A stretch of 64,000 bases of DNA, taken from NCBI RefSeq assembly GCF_009931435.1, contig NZ_CP043414.1. One strand, given 5' to 3'. Numbering within the stretch: position 1 is the stretch's first letter; each line of letters starts with the position of its first letter. The DNA comes from Escherichia coli. GTDB lineage: Bacteria > Pseudomonadota > Gammaproteobacteria > Enterobacterales > Enterobacteriaceae. The position numbers were made by a program. Positions 1-9,000 of the stretch are shown one piece after another.

Positions 1-3000
1 GCCGTGTTGAATCAACACTTTGCGCTCGACAGACCCTTGCAGGATAAAGATCGCCTTAATCGTGATGTTAAAGTGCGAATTGCCGAAAAAGCGGCCAGTT
101 TTGTCAAAGATGGCGATACATTAATTATCGATTCTGGTTCAACGACCACGCTAATTCCCGCTTCGCTCAAAGGGCGTCGGGATTTAGTCGTCATGACGAA
201 TGCCTTGAATATCGCCTGGGAAATGGCCAGTTTTGAACGGGTGGATGTTATGATCCTTGGTGGAAATGTTCGCCAGAGCGTCTACTCCCTGTATGGGCCT
301 TCGGCAGAACAACAACTCCGGCAGTATCGCTTTGATAAGCTGTTTTTGGGCGTGGACGGCTTTTGCCTTGAAGCAGGGATTACCACACCACATCCGGGTG
401 AGGCACATCTGAACCAGGTGATGTGCCAGGTTGCGCAGGAAATTACTGTTGTCGCGGACTCCAGTAAATTTGGCCGCAAAAGCTTCTGTATGATCGGTGA
501 AGTGAGCGAGATAGATCGACTGATTACCGATAGCGGTATTCCGGAGAATTACAAAGCAGCATTAACGCAAATGGGTGTGGAAGTTGTGATTGCTGATGAG
601 TGAGAAAATGTGGCTGGAGATAAACGTCGCCAGCCACATTACGTTATTCAGGTTGCAAGTTCGATTTGCAGCAACGCCGCGCCTCGTACACCGCTCGTTG
701 CTCCGTGAATCGCAGAAAATACGCGCGCAGGTTCCAGTCCAGGAAGAAGATAACGCGTCATAGCTTTCGGCAATAACGTGTAAATTTCTTTGAAGTTAGA
801 CACACCGCCGCCAAGAACAAATGCATCTACGTCGAGAATATGCTGCAACTGTGCCAGCGTACAACCAACCATATCTATCCAGGCGCTAATGGTGGTGATG
901 GCACTGGGAACGCCACGTTGATGATTTTCTAACAATGTCTCCATAGTGATTTGCTCACCGCTGAAATGCTTATGTAACCAGAGCAAGCCAGGACCGGACT
1001 GGTAGCGTTCCAGGCACCCTTGCAAACCGCAGCCGCATTGTAATTCAGGCAGGTTATAGCGCCGCGTAAATGTCGCCGGGAGCGGTAAATGGCCAAACTC
1101 GCAGGCCATACGGTTACGGCCACGGTACAACTGGCCATCAATAACTAATCCCCCGCCCATACCCGTGCCGATAATCGCGCCAAAGATCCGACTATATTGA
1201 CGAGCTTGATCGGTATGCGCTTCTGATAGGGCGAAGCAGCAGCAGTCATTATCCATTATTACCGGGCGGTTAAGGCGATTTGCCAGATCGGTTAACACCT
1301 GGCGTCCGGTCAGGCAGGGAACGTTAGAAGACAACAGTTTACCGGTGTGCCGATCCATAACGCCGGGCATCCCGATACCTATTTTGCCTTGCGTACCCGT
1401 GGCCCAGTCAGCGGTATCAATCAGAGACACAAATGTGGATAGAAAAAGCGCGTAATCCTGAACAGGCGTAGCTACCCGCTTGCGCCAGCAAATTTGTAAA
1501 TCCTGATCAAAGGCGACTATCTCTGTTTTGGTTCCACCAATATCAACACCGTAAAACATCGCTCATCTCCTTTGGTTTCACAGCACAACCAGGGTATTTT
1601 CCTTGCGAGCGCGTTCGGCGGCAAAGACCATTAAATGACTTTCGAGCGATTCATCTGGTCCTGAAAGGATCATCGCTCGATCGTCAGCCATCACGGCATG
1701 GATAAAGCTGTCCATCAGATAGTAATCACCACCACCGTGCCCTCCCATTTGGGTGTGAGTGCCTGCGTTTTTCTCTTCAACGGTGTAAATAGTTTCCTGG
1801 TCGGTGAGAAAATCAAAACACCGAATGGTGTTGCCATCGCCTTCCAGATAACCTTTCGAACCGAAAACTCGGGTTTTGCGATCCTCCATTTTCGTAAAGG
1901 CTGTCATTGTAAAAGTGACGCTCTGCTGATGCGCAAACTGCATGTTTACCACTTGATGATCAACAACATCGTTATCGCAGCAATAAACACAGCGACCATA
2001 GGGGCCGTCACGCAGGGCCTGACGAATATTCTCTTCAGTAGGATTTGGTGTTAACACGTGGCGAAAGTGAAACGTACATTTATGGGCTTCGCCAGCATAA
2101 ATTTTGCATGCGGACCACGGGCAGGTCGCTTCTGCCTGGCAATCGAGACAGCGTTCGGCTGCGCCTTCAGGTTGGTTTTGTTTTACAAAATGGTTGAGCC
2201 CGCCAAATGAGCTAACGGTTTTACAGTTGTCTCCCATGATGTAGCGGATCCAGTCCAGATCGTGGCAGGACTTTTGTAACAACATAAATGATGATTCAGC
2301 CTCGTTGCGCCAGTTACCACGCACAAAAGAGTGTGCCTGGTGCCAGTAACCGACGGGTTCGAGATGCTGCATACTGATAATGTCGCCAATGATGCCGCTG
2401 TCGAGTAAGGATTTGAGTTTTTGTGTATATCGGGTGTAACGAAGAACGTGTGCGACGGCTAATAAGACATTATTGCGTTTGACGGCATCAATGATAATGC
2501 GGCAATCGTGCTCTGTTGGCGCGAGCGGTTTTTCCAACAGAATGTGATAACCGAGATCGGCAAAAGCGACGGCCGGATCTCTATGCATATTGTCTTGCGT
2601 ACAAATAAGTACAGCATCAGCCATTTTTGGCCGAGCAGCAGCCTCTTTCCAGTTGCTAAAAATATTATCTGTCGGGATCGTATGCCGGGACACAACTTGC
2701 TCGCGGTAAGCCTCTCTAGGTTCAGCAACACCTACCACTTGCATTCTGTCCGGATGCTCAAGGGCATAGCGGGAATATATTTCTCCACGTGCGCCTGCAC
2801 CTATTACTAAAACAGTGACTTTATTTTTACTCATATAAAGAAATACCTTTCTGATAAATTCATCTTAATTGCTACGTTATAAATTACGAAAACTAACAAG
2901 ATGAAATCCGTGTTTTTCAATCGCATATTTGAGTGACGGTGTAGTCAGAACCGTAAGTTCTTCCAGCCGTTGATAGCAGTAACTGCTCGACATTAAGTGG

Positions 3001-6000: not shown

Positions 6001-9000
6001 CGCCTAACCAGTTTGCACCAATGACATTAGCGGTTTCTCCTGCCTTGAAGGGGGTGACAGTCATAAACGCTGCGACAGAGAGTAAGCCAACGGATAACGA
6101 ATCAACTTTCCGTTCTTCGGCCAACCCCATCCCAATAAAAAAGGGGGTCATGAGTGACATAATGCCCAGCGTGCCATGATAAGCACTGTCACCGACGACG
6201 GTGAAGGCGCTTAAGGTTTTTATGGTCGATGGTTCCAGTCGGACGCCTAATGAATAAAAAAAGGAGCCTTCGCCAAAATCTAAAAAAACGCTATTAATGA
6301 GGACAAATAACGTACCGGCTAACGTTAATGGCATCATACGGATAAAACCGTTTTTTATTGCATTGACGTGAGGTTGTTTCCCTAATTTAACTGCAAAAGG
6401 AAGAATGAGTTTTTCAAGTAACGCCATCACTCCGGGCATAAAAATATCCTTATATACCGATTAATGTATCACTGCGACTTTGGTTTTATTAATATCCTGT
6501 TGCTATGGTTACTTTTGCTCTTTTTTTATTATGGCGATAGCTGATTTTAGAACACCTAAGCCATCAATTTTTCCATATAACATTGAATCAATAACTTCCA
6601 CTGGCTTTCCTGGTAATAAGCTTTGGATCTCTGATTGCATGTAAGCAATTTGAGGTCCCAATAATATAACATCGGCTTCCGGCCCTTTCTCTGCGGCAAC
6701 AGATTCGGAGAATGCTTCGATAATTACTGGCACATCATATTTTATCGCCTGCACTTTCATTTTTGACACCAGCAGTGATGTTGACATTCCCGCTGAACAA
6801 AATAAGTATATTTTTTTCTTTTCCATAGGGACTCCAGATATATTACGTAATAATATATTTGTCATGCCATGAATGGCATATGAGGCGACTTTAATTAAAA
6901 AGGCACGGATGTTTATATTGATTTCCTGAATGTCGTCTTTTGGTATTAATCTCAAAAATTTCAGGAGCCATTGAATAATCTGGTTTATAGGATTGAATGT
7001 CAAGAGAGTGAAATTGTGGGCGTGTTGTAATAAAAATAGCACGGCTTTCGGTAGGTTTCTTTTTTAGCGGAATGAAAAGTACAGGCAAAATGGTAATTGA
7101 ATAAATTAACGTTTTTTCAATAGATTACGTTTTTTTCTGCCTACAGGAATGAAAAAAACAACAATCTAAAAATACTTTAGATATGTGAGAGTTATCACTT
7201 ACTTTTCGTGGGGAAAACGGGGAAACACAGTCTCCCCGTTTTCCGTTCATGCAAGGCCGTCAAGTCACCGGTGCCGGGTTAAACACCGCCAGCTGGTTAT
7301 GCAGTCCCCATTGATCTGAGAAGGTTTTCTTCTTCCCGCTGGCGACGTCGAGAATAAAATGGAACAATTTCCAGCCCACCTCTTCAATAGTTTCTTCGCC
7401 GGTAGCGATGGTGCCCGCATTAATATCCATTAAATCAAACCAGCGGTTCGCCAGCTCGGTGCGGGTCGCCATTTTAATGACGGGTACCGCCATCAGGCCG
7501 TACGGCGTGCCGCGACCGGTCGTAAACACTTGCACGGTAATCCCTGATGCCACCTGTTGCGTGCCACAGACAAAATCGCTGGCTGGCGTCGCGGCGTAAA
7601 TTAATCCGCGTTTAGTCGGGCGTTGACCGGGCGATAGCACTTCAACAATTGCGCTTTTACCCGATTTAGCAATGGAGCCGAGAGCCTTCTCCACTACGTT
7701 TGCCAGACCGCCTTTCTTGTTGCCCGGAGAAGGGTTGGCGCTGCGGTCGGTTTTTCCCATATTGAGATAGTTATCGTACCACTCCATCTCCTCCAGCAGC
7801 CGTTTGCCGACCTCTTCGTTCACTGCGCGTGGTGTCAGCAGATGGATCGCGTCACGCACTTCTGTGACTTCTGAAAACATCACCGTTGCGCCGCAGCGCA
7901 CCAGTAGATCAGACGCATACCCAACCGCCGGGTTTGCCGTTACGCCAGAAAACGCATCGCTGCCACCGCACTGCATGCCGACAACCAGTTCTGAAGCCGG
8001 ACAGGTTTCTCGCTGACGTTGATTCAGTTTTTGTAGATGGCGTTCGGCGACCTGCAAAATATCCTCGACCATGGACTGAAAACCGACATGCTTTTCATCC
8101 TGCAAACTGACAATGCTGGCGCTTTCTACTGGAATAGCTTGCACATCATCCGTTCCAGTCAGCAGGCGCTCAGGCTGCAACTTTTCACAACCCAGACCAA
8201 TCACCATTACTTCGCCGCCAAAGTTAGGGTTCAGCGAAATATTGTGAATGGTACGAATAGGCACAACTGCCGCCGGTGCGTTAATCGCCACGCCACAACC
8301 GTACAAATGATTCAGCCCCACCACGCCATCGACGTTCGGGTATTTCGGTAGCAGATCGCGTTCAATGATTTTTACTACATAGTCCACCACGCCTGCCACA
8401 CAGTGGACGCTGGTGGTGATGCCGAGCAGGTTTTTGGTGCCCACGCTGCCATCGGCATTGCGATAGCCCTCAAAGGTGTATCCTTCCAGTGGCGGTAAGG
8501 GGGCCGGGACTTTAGTTGCCAGTGGCAGCGTGTGTAACGGTGGCGCTTCCGGTAGTACAACCATTGATTCGTCGATCCAGCTTCCGCGTGGGATTGCGCG
8601 CACGGCGTAACCAATCACTTCACCATAACGAATAATTTCACCATTAGCCGGAATGTCCAGCAATGCGACTTTATGCCCCTGGGGAATATGTTCAATTAAT
8701 TCCAGCCCATCCGGAAAACGCGTTCCTGCTTTCAGGCCATTATCATTAACAATAATTGCCACATTATCTGTGTCGTGAACTTTTATATAAAACGCAGTTG
8801 GCGTTTCTTGTCTGATTTCGATGTTGGCCATTGTGCAATATTCTCCAGCCAGGGGTTATTAAAATGAGGACCTGGTCTCATTTAAAAATAAATGACTTCA
8901 TTGGGTGAAATAAGAATGTCAGGAGTTTAAACGCAGAAATGTGATCAATGTCAATCATTTCAGGGATTGCAGTGCCGCCCGGCAGGGTAAAGCGCAAATC

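Follow-up and report, generated by a model that had tools for sequence, protein, structure and literature searches.

Between garD and the aga genes, a 64-kb stretch of the Escherichia coli contig NZ_CP043414.1 (the window) carries an operon of six minus-strand genes, accompanied by a convergent regulatory gene, agaR2, that has the appearance of a module exchange. In the order of transcription, the six genes encode the EIIB and EIIC components of a phosphotransferase system (PTS), a family 4 glycoside hydrolase (GH4), a ChbG-like deacetylase, a Gfo/Idh/MocA oxidoreductase (hereafter Gfo) with a conserved Cys cluster, and a ROK-family sugar kinase. The structural and evolutionary account given below, in which the genes of an ATP-binding cassette (ABC) importer were replaced by a foreign chb-like core, is very probably correct. 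The best explanation overall is that of a rare Escherichia accessory operon formed by module replacement and serving a proposed route for glycosides of N-acetylglucosamine (GlcNAc); taken as a whole, it stands slightly above an even chance. The substrate logic of that route, considered by itself, falls somewhat short of one.

Much of the outline given in the first-pass annotation of this DNA holds. All open reading frames (ORFs) of the six tightly spaced genes that it described are found at 648-6826, the locus lies at the garD/agaR junction where it was placed, and the convergent DeoR-family regulator at the far end is an ORF at 4-603 (+), an AgaR paralogue belonging to the island. The spacers from EIIB to ROK are, in operon order, 69, 77, 12, 42 and 18 bp, and a Shine-Dalgarno-like motif precedes every one of the six genes. 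NCBIfam E-values for the island proteins reach 3e-241, and these matches are therefore not due to chance. No published description of the locus or of the Gfo subfamily was found in the literature searched; Streptomyces NagS (PMC12680351), considered as a literature lead, is irrelevant. The locus is a variant of chb-type PTS and AgaR-type amino-sugar operons and not a new class of system.

Module exchange at the garD-aga junction

Related loci, located using the oxidoreductase as query, are present beside the aga genes of Citrobacter werkmanii and Enterobacteriaceae RIT691, in the order ABC transporter, Gfo, ROK, convergent agaR2, agaR and kbaZ. The ABC module of these loci consists of a substrate-binding protein, two permeases and a MalK-like ATPase (CUT1), and in C. 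werkmanii garD is located directly upstream of the ABC-Gfo-ROK operon. A metagenome-assembled genome (MAG) of Escherichia-like affiliation has an ABC-type operon that is preceded by garK and a phage integrase, with prlF-yhaV before agaR, and in a Logan contig an ABC-type operon is visible from the permease genes onward. In C. werkmanii, RIT691 and the MAG, the four importer genes stand behind a single promoter. The ABC-type version is absent from all complete E. coli genomes. The ABC-Gfo-ROK loci of C. werkmanii, RIT691, Serratia and Vibrionaceae share with the island orthologous Gfo (78-85%), ROK (75-86%) and AgaR2 (~77% DNA identity), and the Citrobacter locus also shares its place by garD and agaR and a homologous promoter. 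Unlike the island, however, these loci rely on CUT1 ABC import and lack PTS, GH4 and ChbG genes. A comparison of the Citrobacter substrate-binding protein with the PDB returned remote CUT1 oligosaccharide binders only, and no clue to the ligand.

The breakpoints of the exchange are placed with a precision of a few tens of bases. By blastn, the corresponding region of strain R32_14_1F is 71-77% identical to the ABC-type loci over agaR2, ROK and Gfo (window 1-2839), and the match stops exactly at the Gfo start codon (~2839), within the left swap junction at 2835-2876. Homology to C. werkmanii returns at ~6956 and runs through the promoter into garD. For the Escherichia-like MAG it returns over ~120 bp of promoter only, and RIT691 gave no blastn match upstream of the swapped segment. 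The interval between these limits, window 2840-6955, has no counterpart in the ABC-type loci and is 68-70% identical to chbB-chbC and chbF-chbG of canonical operons. The G+C content is 36-49%, mostly 36-45%, over the chb-like segment (2501-7000), compared with 47-54% in ROK and Gfo and 52-57% in garD, a dip that agrees with the recombination breakpoints from the alignments.

Because homology stops at the Gfo start and resumes at the promoter, with a chb-type match between, the alignments show that the four ABC genes were exchanged for a foreign chbB/C/F/G-like core, while the promoter, Gfo, ROK and agaR2 were kept. Gfo-ROK-agaR2 is, on the same comparison, the resident and ancestral module, and the chb-like genes are the incoming piece. 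This reverses the direction proposed in the first-pass annotation, which had a kinase and an oxidoreductase added to a chb paralogue: in C. werkmanii and RIT691 the Gfo-ROK-agaR2 module is already found at the garD side, behind an ABC transporter. The locus thus offers a clean case of natural operon engineering by module exchange, in which an ABC importer is replaced by a PTS and two processing enzymes and the promoter, repressor and downstream enzymes are retained.

The chb-like genes

EIIB (6509-6826, minus strand, 105 amino acids) scores 189.8 bits against NCBIfam NF007796 (cut-off 157) and is 81% identical to K-12 ChbB. EIIC (5078-6439, minus strand, 453 amino acids) scores 800.6 bits against the chbC equivalog NF007634 (cut-off 760) and is 73% identical to K-12 ChbC; by NCBIfam the two form a Lac/cellobiose-family pair of the ChbB/ChbC type. 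The ChbF-like GH4 6-phospho-beta-glycosidase (3648-5000, minus strand, 450 amino acids) is 75% identical to K-12 ChbF and has the glucosamine 6-phosphate (GlcN-6-P) -1 subsite of that enzyme. It is followed by a ChbG-like monodeacetylase of the YdjC family (2877-3635, minus strand, 252 amino acids), which scores 351 bits against the ChbG equivalog NF002559 (cut-off 227) and is 57% identical to K-12 ChbG. The order of these four genes is that of E. coli chbBCARFG, and the same chemistry (6-phosphorylation, deacetylation and NAD/Mn-dependent cleavage) would be expected by analogy. The island differs from chbBCARFG in lacking chbA and chbR, in its unrelated promoter, which comes from an AgaR2-controlled ABC operon, and in its additional Gfo and ROK genes. 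The two systems also differ in location, garD/aga as against osmE/katE, and coexist. The absence of EIIA and ChbR noted earlier is borne out by tblastn with K-12 ChbA and ChbR over the whole 64-kb window, which found no match to either.

In K-12, Salmonella and Superficieibacter the genes follow the canonical order B-C-A-R-F-G, and the place of chbA and chbR is occupied here by a 77-bp spacer (5001-5077, minus strand). Outside Escherichia, the ChbG-like protein has its nearest relatives, at 65-67% identity, inside complete chbBCARFG operons: that of Superficieibacter is the canonical operon in the osmE/katE interval, and that of Salmonella, in some strains, is a second chb copy in the frd/blc interval. 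In pairwise comparison, K-12 ChbG is itself only 54% identical to Superficieibacter ChbG and 59% identical to Yersinia ChbG, and the island proteins are no more distant from K-12 than true chb orthologues are from one another. Since the closest relatives are in complete operons and the divergence is within the orthologue range, the best reading of the chb-like piece is a B-C...F-G core that came from the chb operon of an enterobacterial lineage not yet sampled, with chbA and chbR missing at the 77-bp spacer. The four genes had been called chb paralogues; the homology to chb stands (57-81% identity), but a foreign chb core fits better than E. coli paralogues.

The same data are what might be expected of a second system for chitobiose or chito-oligosaccharides, in which the PTS, ChbG and GH4 act on (GlcNAc)2 or (GlcNAc)3, the ROK kinase acts on the GlcNAc released, and Gfo is a passenger. 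The 57-81% identity to K-12 falls within the true chb range, and EIIC, EIIB and ChbG pass chb-type cut-offs, so plain chitobiose is a fair default. The GH4 -1 subsite is also identical to that of ChbF, with nine of the nine residues listed for it conserved. However, the strains already have an intact chb operon, and the GH4 substitutions are gathered elsewhere: seven of the 40 lineage-specific substitutions are in residues 226-246, where ~1.9 would be expected. This stretch includes the 231-240 loop, which has been proposed as a possible shaper of the +1 subsite (PMC13197890). An intact -1 subsite together with substitutions around a putative +1 loop weakly suggests that GH4 may act on the same glycone, GlcN-6-P, joined to a different aglycone. 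With these points and those from the promoter, Gfo and ROK given below, a second chitobiose system is a serious but fairly unlikely reading. The first-pass view that plain chitobiose is an unlikely substrate may or may not hold.

Promoter, leader and regulator

The promoter supports the exchange and bears on the substrate. Minus-strand hexamers TTGACA (-35) and GATTAT (-10) at 6968-7003 form the best sigma-70 match in the region (10/12) and are kept in all five genomes aligned, which include both PTS-type and ABC-type loci. The island promoter is homologous to that of the ABC-type AgaR2 loci and not to the chbB upstream region, and is, on this homology, the ancestral promoter, retained through the swap. 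A second chitobiose system would therefore have the promoter and regulator of an AgaR2-controlled locus, not those of ChbR or NagC, which argues against it. The 5' leader between promoter and EIIB (6827-6955, minus strand), which came with or arose at the right swap junction, shares no homology with either the ABC-type loci or the regions upstream of chbB. A longer EIIB of 177 amino acids from a GTG start (6509-7042) is an over-extension, since the alignment to K-12 ChbB begins at the ATG at 6826 and the extension would take in the conserved promoter.

Upstream of the promoter, a conserved minus-strand block at 7042-7079 (CTTTTCATT...AGAAACCTACCGAAAG; CTTTTC...GAAAC...CGAAAG) is common to PTS-type and ABC-type promoters, and CGAAAG/CTTTC repeats also occur upstream of agaR2 in six genomes. 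This block is a candidate AgaR2 operator. A CRP-like site is present at 7181-7200 (minus strand; AAGTGATAACTCTCACATAT, also written AAGTGATAAC-N-CTCACAT), and four of the five aligned promoters retain its GTGA-N6-TCAC core, RIT691 having only the TCAC half.

Only the 3' part of agaR2 (199 codons) is in the window; the start lies to the left. In R32_14_1F the gene is complete, encoding a DeoR/AgaR-like repressor of 256 amino acids, and the genuine agaR is located another 0.5 kb leftward. The 199-residue fragment scores 269 bits against NCBIfam AgaR NF040755 (cut-off 260), an AgaR-type match within the DeoR family, and NZ_CP074749 has the full-length gene under the annotation 'transcriptional repressor AgaR'. 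It is not K-12 agaR, to whose product it is only 44% identical; the true agaR is further left, outside the window. Between agaR2 and ROK, an inverted repeat at 607-640 (arms AATGTGGCTGG...CCAGCCACATT) is a likely bidirectional terminator, and bases 596-660, which span this strong hairpin, fold with a minimum free energy of -27.9 kcal/mol.

The island has several features in common with the aga/N-acetylgalactosamine (GalNAc) regulon, represented by E. coli AgaR and by the Shewanella agaR-O-Z-S-K-AII-P cluster: a DeoR-type AgaR regulator, a ROK-type kinase (AgaK in Shewanella), and a position adjoining aga genes. Its AgaR2 is nonetheless distinct from AgaR, and it has no AgaS, AgaA or KbaY of its own. 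The supplement of PMC2996990 includes a Gfo/Idh/MocA gene, agaO, in the Shewanella aga operon. AgaO is described in the same supplement as a secreted or outer-membrane lipoprotein, whereas the island Gfo begins at the Rossmann fold and has a Cys-cluster insert.

Distribution and maintenance

Among 5,426 complete E. coli genomes, the 6.7-kb block is present in three. In R32_14_1F (goat) and RMDEC465 (human) the island is 99.6% identical to that of the window, and in GF4-3 (guinea fowl) it is 91.8% identical. Exact or near-exact proteins are found elsewhere only in draft E. coli assemblies and in the unclassified Escherichia E4385, E3659 and 94.0001. As it occurs in ~0.06% of complete genomes, the island is marginal for E. 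coli biology.

The K-12 order at the site is garD-prlF-yhaV-agaR, in agreement with the first-pass annotation, which placed prlF-yhaV beside garD. The order in GF4-3 is garD, island, agaR2, prlF, yhaV (pseudogene) and agaR, and the island was therefore inserted between garD and prlF. Strains of the R32 type have lost prlF-yhaV, and an 84-bp remnant of the garD-prlF spacer is present beside agaR, just left of the window (L001, 11336-11419). A simple replacement of prlF-yhaV by the island is ruled out: GF4-3 holds both the pair and the island, and the remnant in R32_14_1F marks a separate deletion. In GF4-3 (L094, 1942-2741) prlF is kept, but the annotation has yhaV as a pseudogene interrupted by an internal stop. 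Next to the island, the pair would seem to be in independent decay or to have been lost independently.

The two versions of the island differ by 3-14% in DNA, and all seven genes are intact in both. The ratios of nonsynonymous to synonymous substitution (dN/dS) are 0.077 for ROK, 0.105 for Gfo, 0.163 for ChbG, 0.064 for GH4, 0.019 for EIIC, 0.020 for EIIB and 0.089 for AgaR2. The six operon genes were compared between the window and GF4-3, and agaR2, because it is cut by the window edge, between R32_14_1F and GF4-3. Synonymous divergence (dS) of the island genes is 0.11-0.62, compared with 0.10 for garD. These values indicate that all island genes are under purifying selection. Given also that the Gfo proteins of PTS-type islands form a clade of their own (88.5-99.8% identity, compared with at most 85% for ABC-type Gfo), the chimera has been maintained, Gfo included, which argues against a dead relic and against Gfo as a passenger. 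For a second chitobiose system this is a difficulty, since Gfo is intact and selected within the PTS-type lineage at a dS of 0.60.

It could be proposed instead that the locus is a non-functional or decaying recombination product, without EIIA and a proper regulator, which is not usefully expressed and lingers in a few lineages. Its presence in only three complete genomes, the missing chbA and chbR, and the frameshifted EIIC of RMDEC465 (L095, 8474-9834) would all be in line with this. However, every gene is intact in the window, R32_14_1F and GF4-3, dN/dS is 0.02-0.16, catalytic motifs and ribosome-binding sites are kept, and the island is also found in the three unclassified Escherichia named above. 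Decay is thus highly improbable.

The Cys-cluster oxidoreductase

The Gfo gene (1578-2834, minus strand) encodes a cytoplasmic protein of 418 amino acids. It matches PF01408 (6e-19), PF02894 (3e-13) and PF22725 (5e-12), and its AlphaFold model (mean predicted local distance difference test score, pLDDT, 85) has the Gfo fold, with a Rossmann domain and a C-terminal alpha/beta domain. In NCBIfam it matches generic Gfo/Idh/MocA models only, and no equivalog. As first described, the protein is Cys-rich, with 13 Cys (3.1%), of which six are invariant across the family. The invariant residues comprise GxGxxG, EKP, C190 (in SCHDLDW), C229-x2-C232-x5-C238, C282-x3-C286 and HGGGD (366-370); C243 of the E. 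coli protein is not conserved.

Residues 1-215 alone align to any PDB chain, with YjhC (8e-22 over residues 10-215) and RgNanOx as the best matches. By Foldseek, the model resembles Gfo-fold enzymes at template modelling (TM) scores of 0.64-0.71 and 13-18% identity; among the highest-ranking of them are YjhC/NanOx, the GH188 NAD-dependent sulfoquinovosidases and levoglucosan dehydrogenase. With these NAD-dependent enzymes that cleave C-O bonds, and with GH109, Gfo shares the GxGxxG and EKP motifs, but its C-terminal C-x2-C-x5-C...C-x3-C and HGGGD have no counterpart in solved structures, and PDB searches by sequence and by fold returned no specific relative of the C-terminal half. Membership in GH109 is ruled out: 2ixa matches the Rossmann part only (residues 4-154, E = 1e-7), behind ~40 other Gfo enzymes.

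The family is very large and unusually well conserved: among species-representative genomes, it is present in at least 596 loci, spread over Enterobacteriaceae, Vibrionaceae, Planctomycetota, Lentisphaerota, Verrucomicrobiota, Chloroflexota, Actinomycetota, Gemmatimonadota, Deinococcota and Thorarchaeota, with 49-63% identity outside the closest enterobacterial relatives. Recurrent neighbours are ROK kinases, DeoR/AgaR-like regulators and CUT1 ABC transporters, along with AgaS-type SIS proteins, KbaZ/KbaY and NagA. The Gfo-ROK module adjoins AgaS, KbaZ/KbaY, NagA/AgaA and aga PTS genes in Citrobacter, Serratia, Photobacterium and Vibrio. A Gfo-ROK-SIS-PfkB-LacD operon is found in Ktedonobacter, and NagA-Gfo pairs occur in Lentisphaerae and Opitutales. 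Near Gfo there are also GH29 fucosidases, in seven loci that represent at least five phyla, and four loci have galactokinase-like GHMP kinases. Outside Proteobacteria the neighbourhoods are heterogeneous. The recurrent neighbours tie the family solidly to the catabolism of amino sugars and host glycans, with a tagatose-type pathway at its end.

What Gfo itself does is less certain. The leading guess, held tentatively, is an NAD-dependent, redox-neutral cleavage of a glycoside of GalNAc or galactosamine (GalN). Gfo would on this guess follow GH4, GH123 or GH116 as a second glycosidase, and would be the sole one in plain ABC-type loci. An N-acetylhexosamine epimerase or isomerase is the main alternative. 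In three lineages Gfo does occur with a conventional or NAD-dependent glycosidase, namely GH4 here, GH123 in Serratia and GH116 in Citrobacter youngae. More broadly, the Cys-cluster proteins may constitute an unrecognised prokaryote-wide family that carries out an NAD-dependent, metal-assisted, redox-neutral step on amino-sugar glycosides, either as a new glycosidase or as an epimerase feeding GalNAc/GlcNAc pathways, but a claim of this breadth is unlikely to hold in full. If it did, the island would show that ABC and PTS-GH4-ChbG uptake modules are interchangeable ahead of Gfo, and would provide a tractable E. coli system for discovering its substrate. In any case, the island brings a widespread Cys-cluster oxidoreductase family into E. 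coli, where it is within reach of genetics and biochemistry.

A few individual loci may be mentioned here. In Citrobacter youngae ATCC 29220 (L016, 5572-11266), a 58%-identical Gfo paralogue follows a transporter ORF, which we take by eye to be of the GPH type, and a GH116-family protein of 896 amino acids. This three-gene segment is flanked by integrase-like genes and makes a third pairing of Gfo with uptake plus a glycosidase. Thorarchaeota MAGs have one or more Gfo copies, at 51-57% identity to the E. coli protein, and such remarkably high conservation across domains suggests lateral spread, strong constraint or MAG contamination. In Anaerolineae (L004/L005, 4303-10245), a gene for an M20 peptidase/deacylase directly precedes Gfo, and a GH114 gene (Pfam Glyco_hydro_114) is located ~4 kb upstream. 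The activity of GH114 is that of an endo-alpha-1,4-polygalactosaminidase, and this locus is a possible hint of galactosamine oligomers as Gfo substrates.

The ROK kinase and a proposed route

The ROK kinase (648-1559, minus strand, 303 amino acids) has the motifs DIGGTK and CGCGLQGC. Its top NCBIfam match is NagK (NF009835), at 306 bits against a cut-off of 380, and it is 40% identical to K-12 NagK, compared with 85-86% to the ROK proteins of ABC-type loci. A NagK orthologue is ruled out by the curated cut-off. A kinase whose best family is NagK would suit a second chitobiose system; the score below the cut-off and the 40% identity speak against one. In the Shewanella aga cluster, the supplement of PMC2996990 predicts a ROK-type GalNAc kinase, AgaK. 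The AgaR-like regulator, the aga neighbours, the Ktedonobacter operon and the predicted AgaK together point to a galactosamine-type end product, as judged from gene content.

For the Chb system, PMC13197890 (citing Walter et al. 2021) and PMC9402603 describe phosphorylation of the non-reducing GlcNAc by the PTS, deacetylation by ChbG and cleavage of GlcN6P-GlcNAc by ChbF. The cleavage is NAD/Mn-dependent and gives GlcN-6-P and a free sugar (PMC13197890, PMC9402603). The outline originally put forward for the island, namely PTS uptake, deacetylation by ChbG, NAD-dependent cleavage by GH4 and a kinase for the released sugar, agrees with this knowledge. As to the missing EIIA, chbBCARFG, including chbA, is intact in the island strain R32_14_1F, and chbA-chbR is found in 5,408 of the 5,426 complete genomes, so ChbA should be available in trans.

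In the route proposed here, AgaR2 would repress the operon and CRP would probably activate it. EIIC and EIIB, with chromosomal ChbA as EIIA, would take up a beta-linked di- or oligosaccharide or glycoside ending in GlcNAc, with phosphorylation at position 6. The ChbG-like enzyme would then remove the acetyl group of the phosphorylated residue, and GH4 would release GlcN-6-P. The leftover aglycone sugar, for which GalNAc, GalN or a glycoside of either is the likeliest candidate, would be processed by Gfo, with NAD-dependent, redox-neutral cleavage or rearrangement of an amino-sugar glycoside as the leading guess for this step, and phosphorylated by ROK. The product would pass into the neighbouring aga (tagatose) pathway. 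It may be that the natural substrate is a mucin- or glycolipid-derived GlcNAc-GalNAc glycoside. The island would also be a possible case of a PTS transporter relying on the EIIA of another operon.

The glucomannan-oligosaccharide PTS operon of Bacillus subtilis, gmuBACDREFG, is built along similar lines, with a Lac/cellobiose-family PTS, a phospho-beta-glycosidase and a ROK kinase for the reducing-end sugar. It differs in having a GH1 enzyme, its own EIIA and a GntR-type regulator, in acting on neutral sugars, and in lacking a deacetylase and Gfo.

Several points weigh against the GlcNAc-glycoside route, in addition to the default of plain chitobiose discussed above. The operon has no EIIA, its reliance on ChbA is assumed, and outside chb induction chbA is not normally expressed. 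The AgaR2 operator is proposed from conservation, and the CRP site from conservation and resemblance to the consensus. The island is very rare, and one of its few carriers has a frameshifted EIIC. The co-occurrence of Gfo with other glycosidases fits a second glycosidase, but fits other roles equally well.

A further alternative is a non-reducing residue of galacto configuration (GalNAc-beta-X, as in LacdiNAc or globo/ganglio-type ends), in which case the PTS, ChbG and GH4 would supply AgaS directly with galactosamine 6-phosphate, and Gfo and ROK would handle X. In Serratia, a cytoplasmic GH123 beta-N-acetylgalactosaminidase, which has no signal peptide, is encoded divergently from the ABC-Gfo-ROK operon and may be regarded as paired with it. 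The aga context and AgaR-like regulator are also compatible with such a substrate, and modelling suggests that the ChbF -1 subsite makes no contact with the C4 hydroxyl (PMC13197890). On the other hand, the -1 subsite and the transporter are ChbF- and ChbC-like with no distinguishing change, and cleavage of 6-phospho-beta-galactosaminides by GH4 is stated to be untested (PMC13197890). A galacto-configured residue is accordingly an improbable reading.

Flanking and other features of the window

On the other side of the promoter from the operon is garD (7260-8831, minus strand), a conserved flank that is ~97-98% identical across nearly all of the complete E. coli genomes. It is followed by a terminator-like hairpin and a T run at 7214-7240 (minus strand), read from the sequence. 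An Rfam scan found no element within the island, and no convincing candidate for an internal terminator was seen there. Elsewhere in the window, Rfam gives a gathering-level match to naRNA4 at 57714-57795 (+; 69.8 bits) and a match to ES036 at 32811-32851 (-; 38.4 bits) that is barely over threshold. The RNase P RNA is located at 13521-13897, as expected. In the rnpB-tdcR interval (~14170-15900, minus strand), by correspondence with R32_14_1F, there are two genes annotated as hypothetical, encoding proteins of ~389 and ~179 amino acids.

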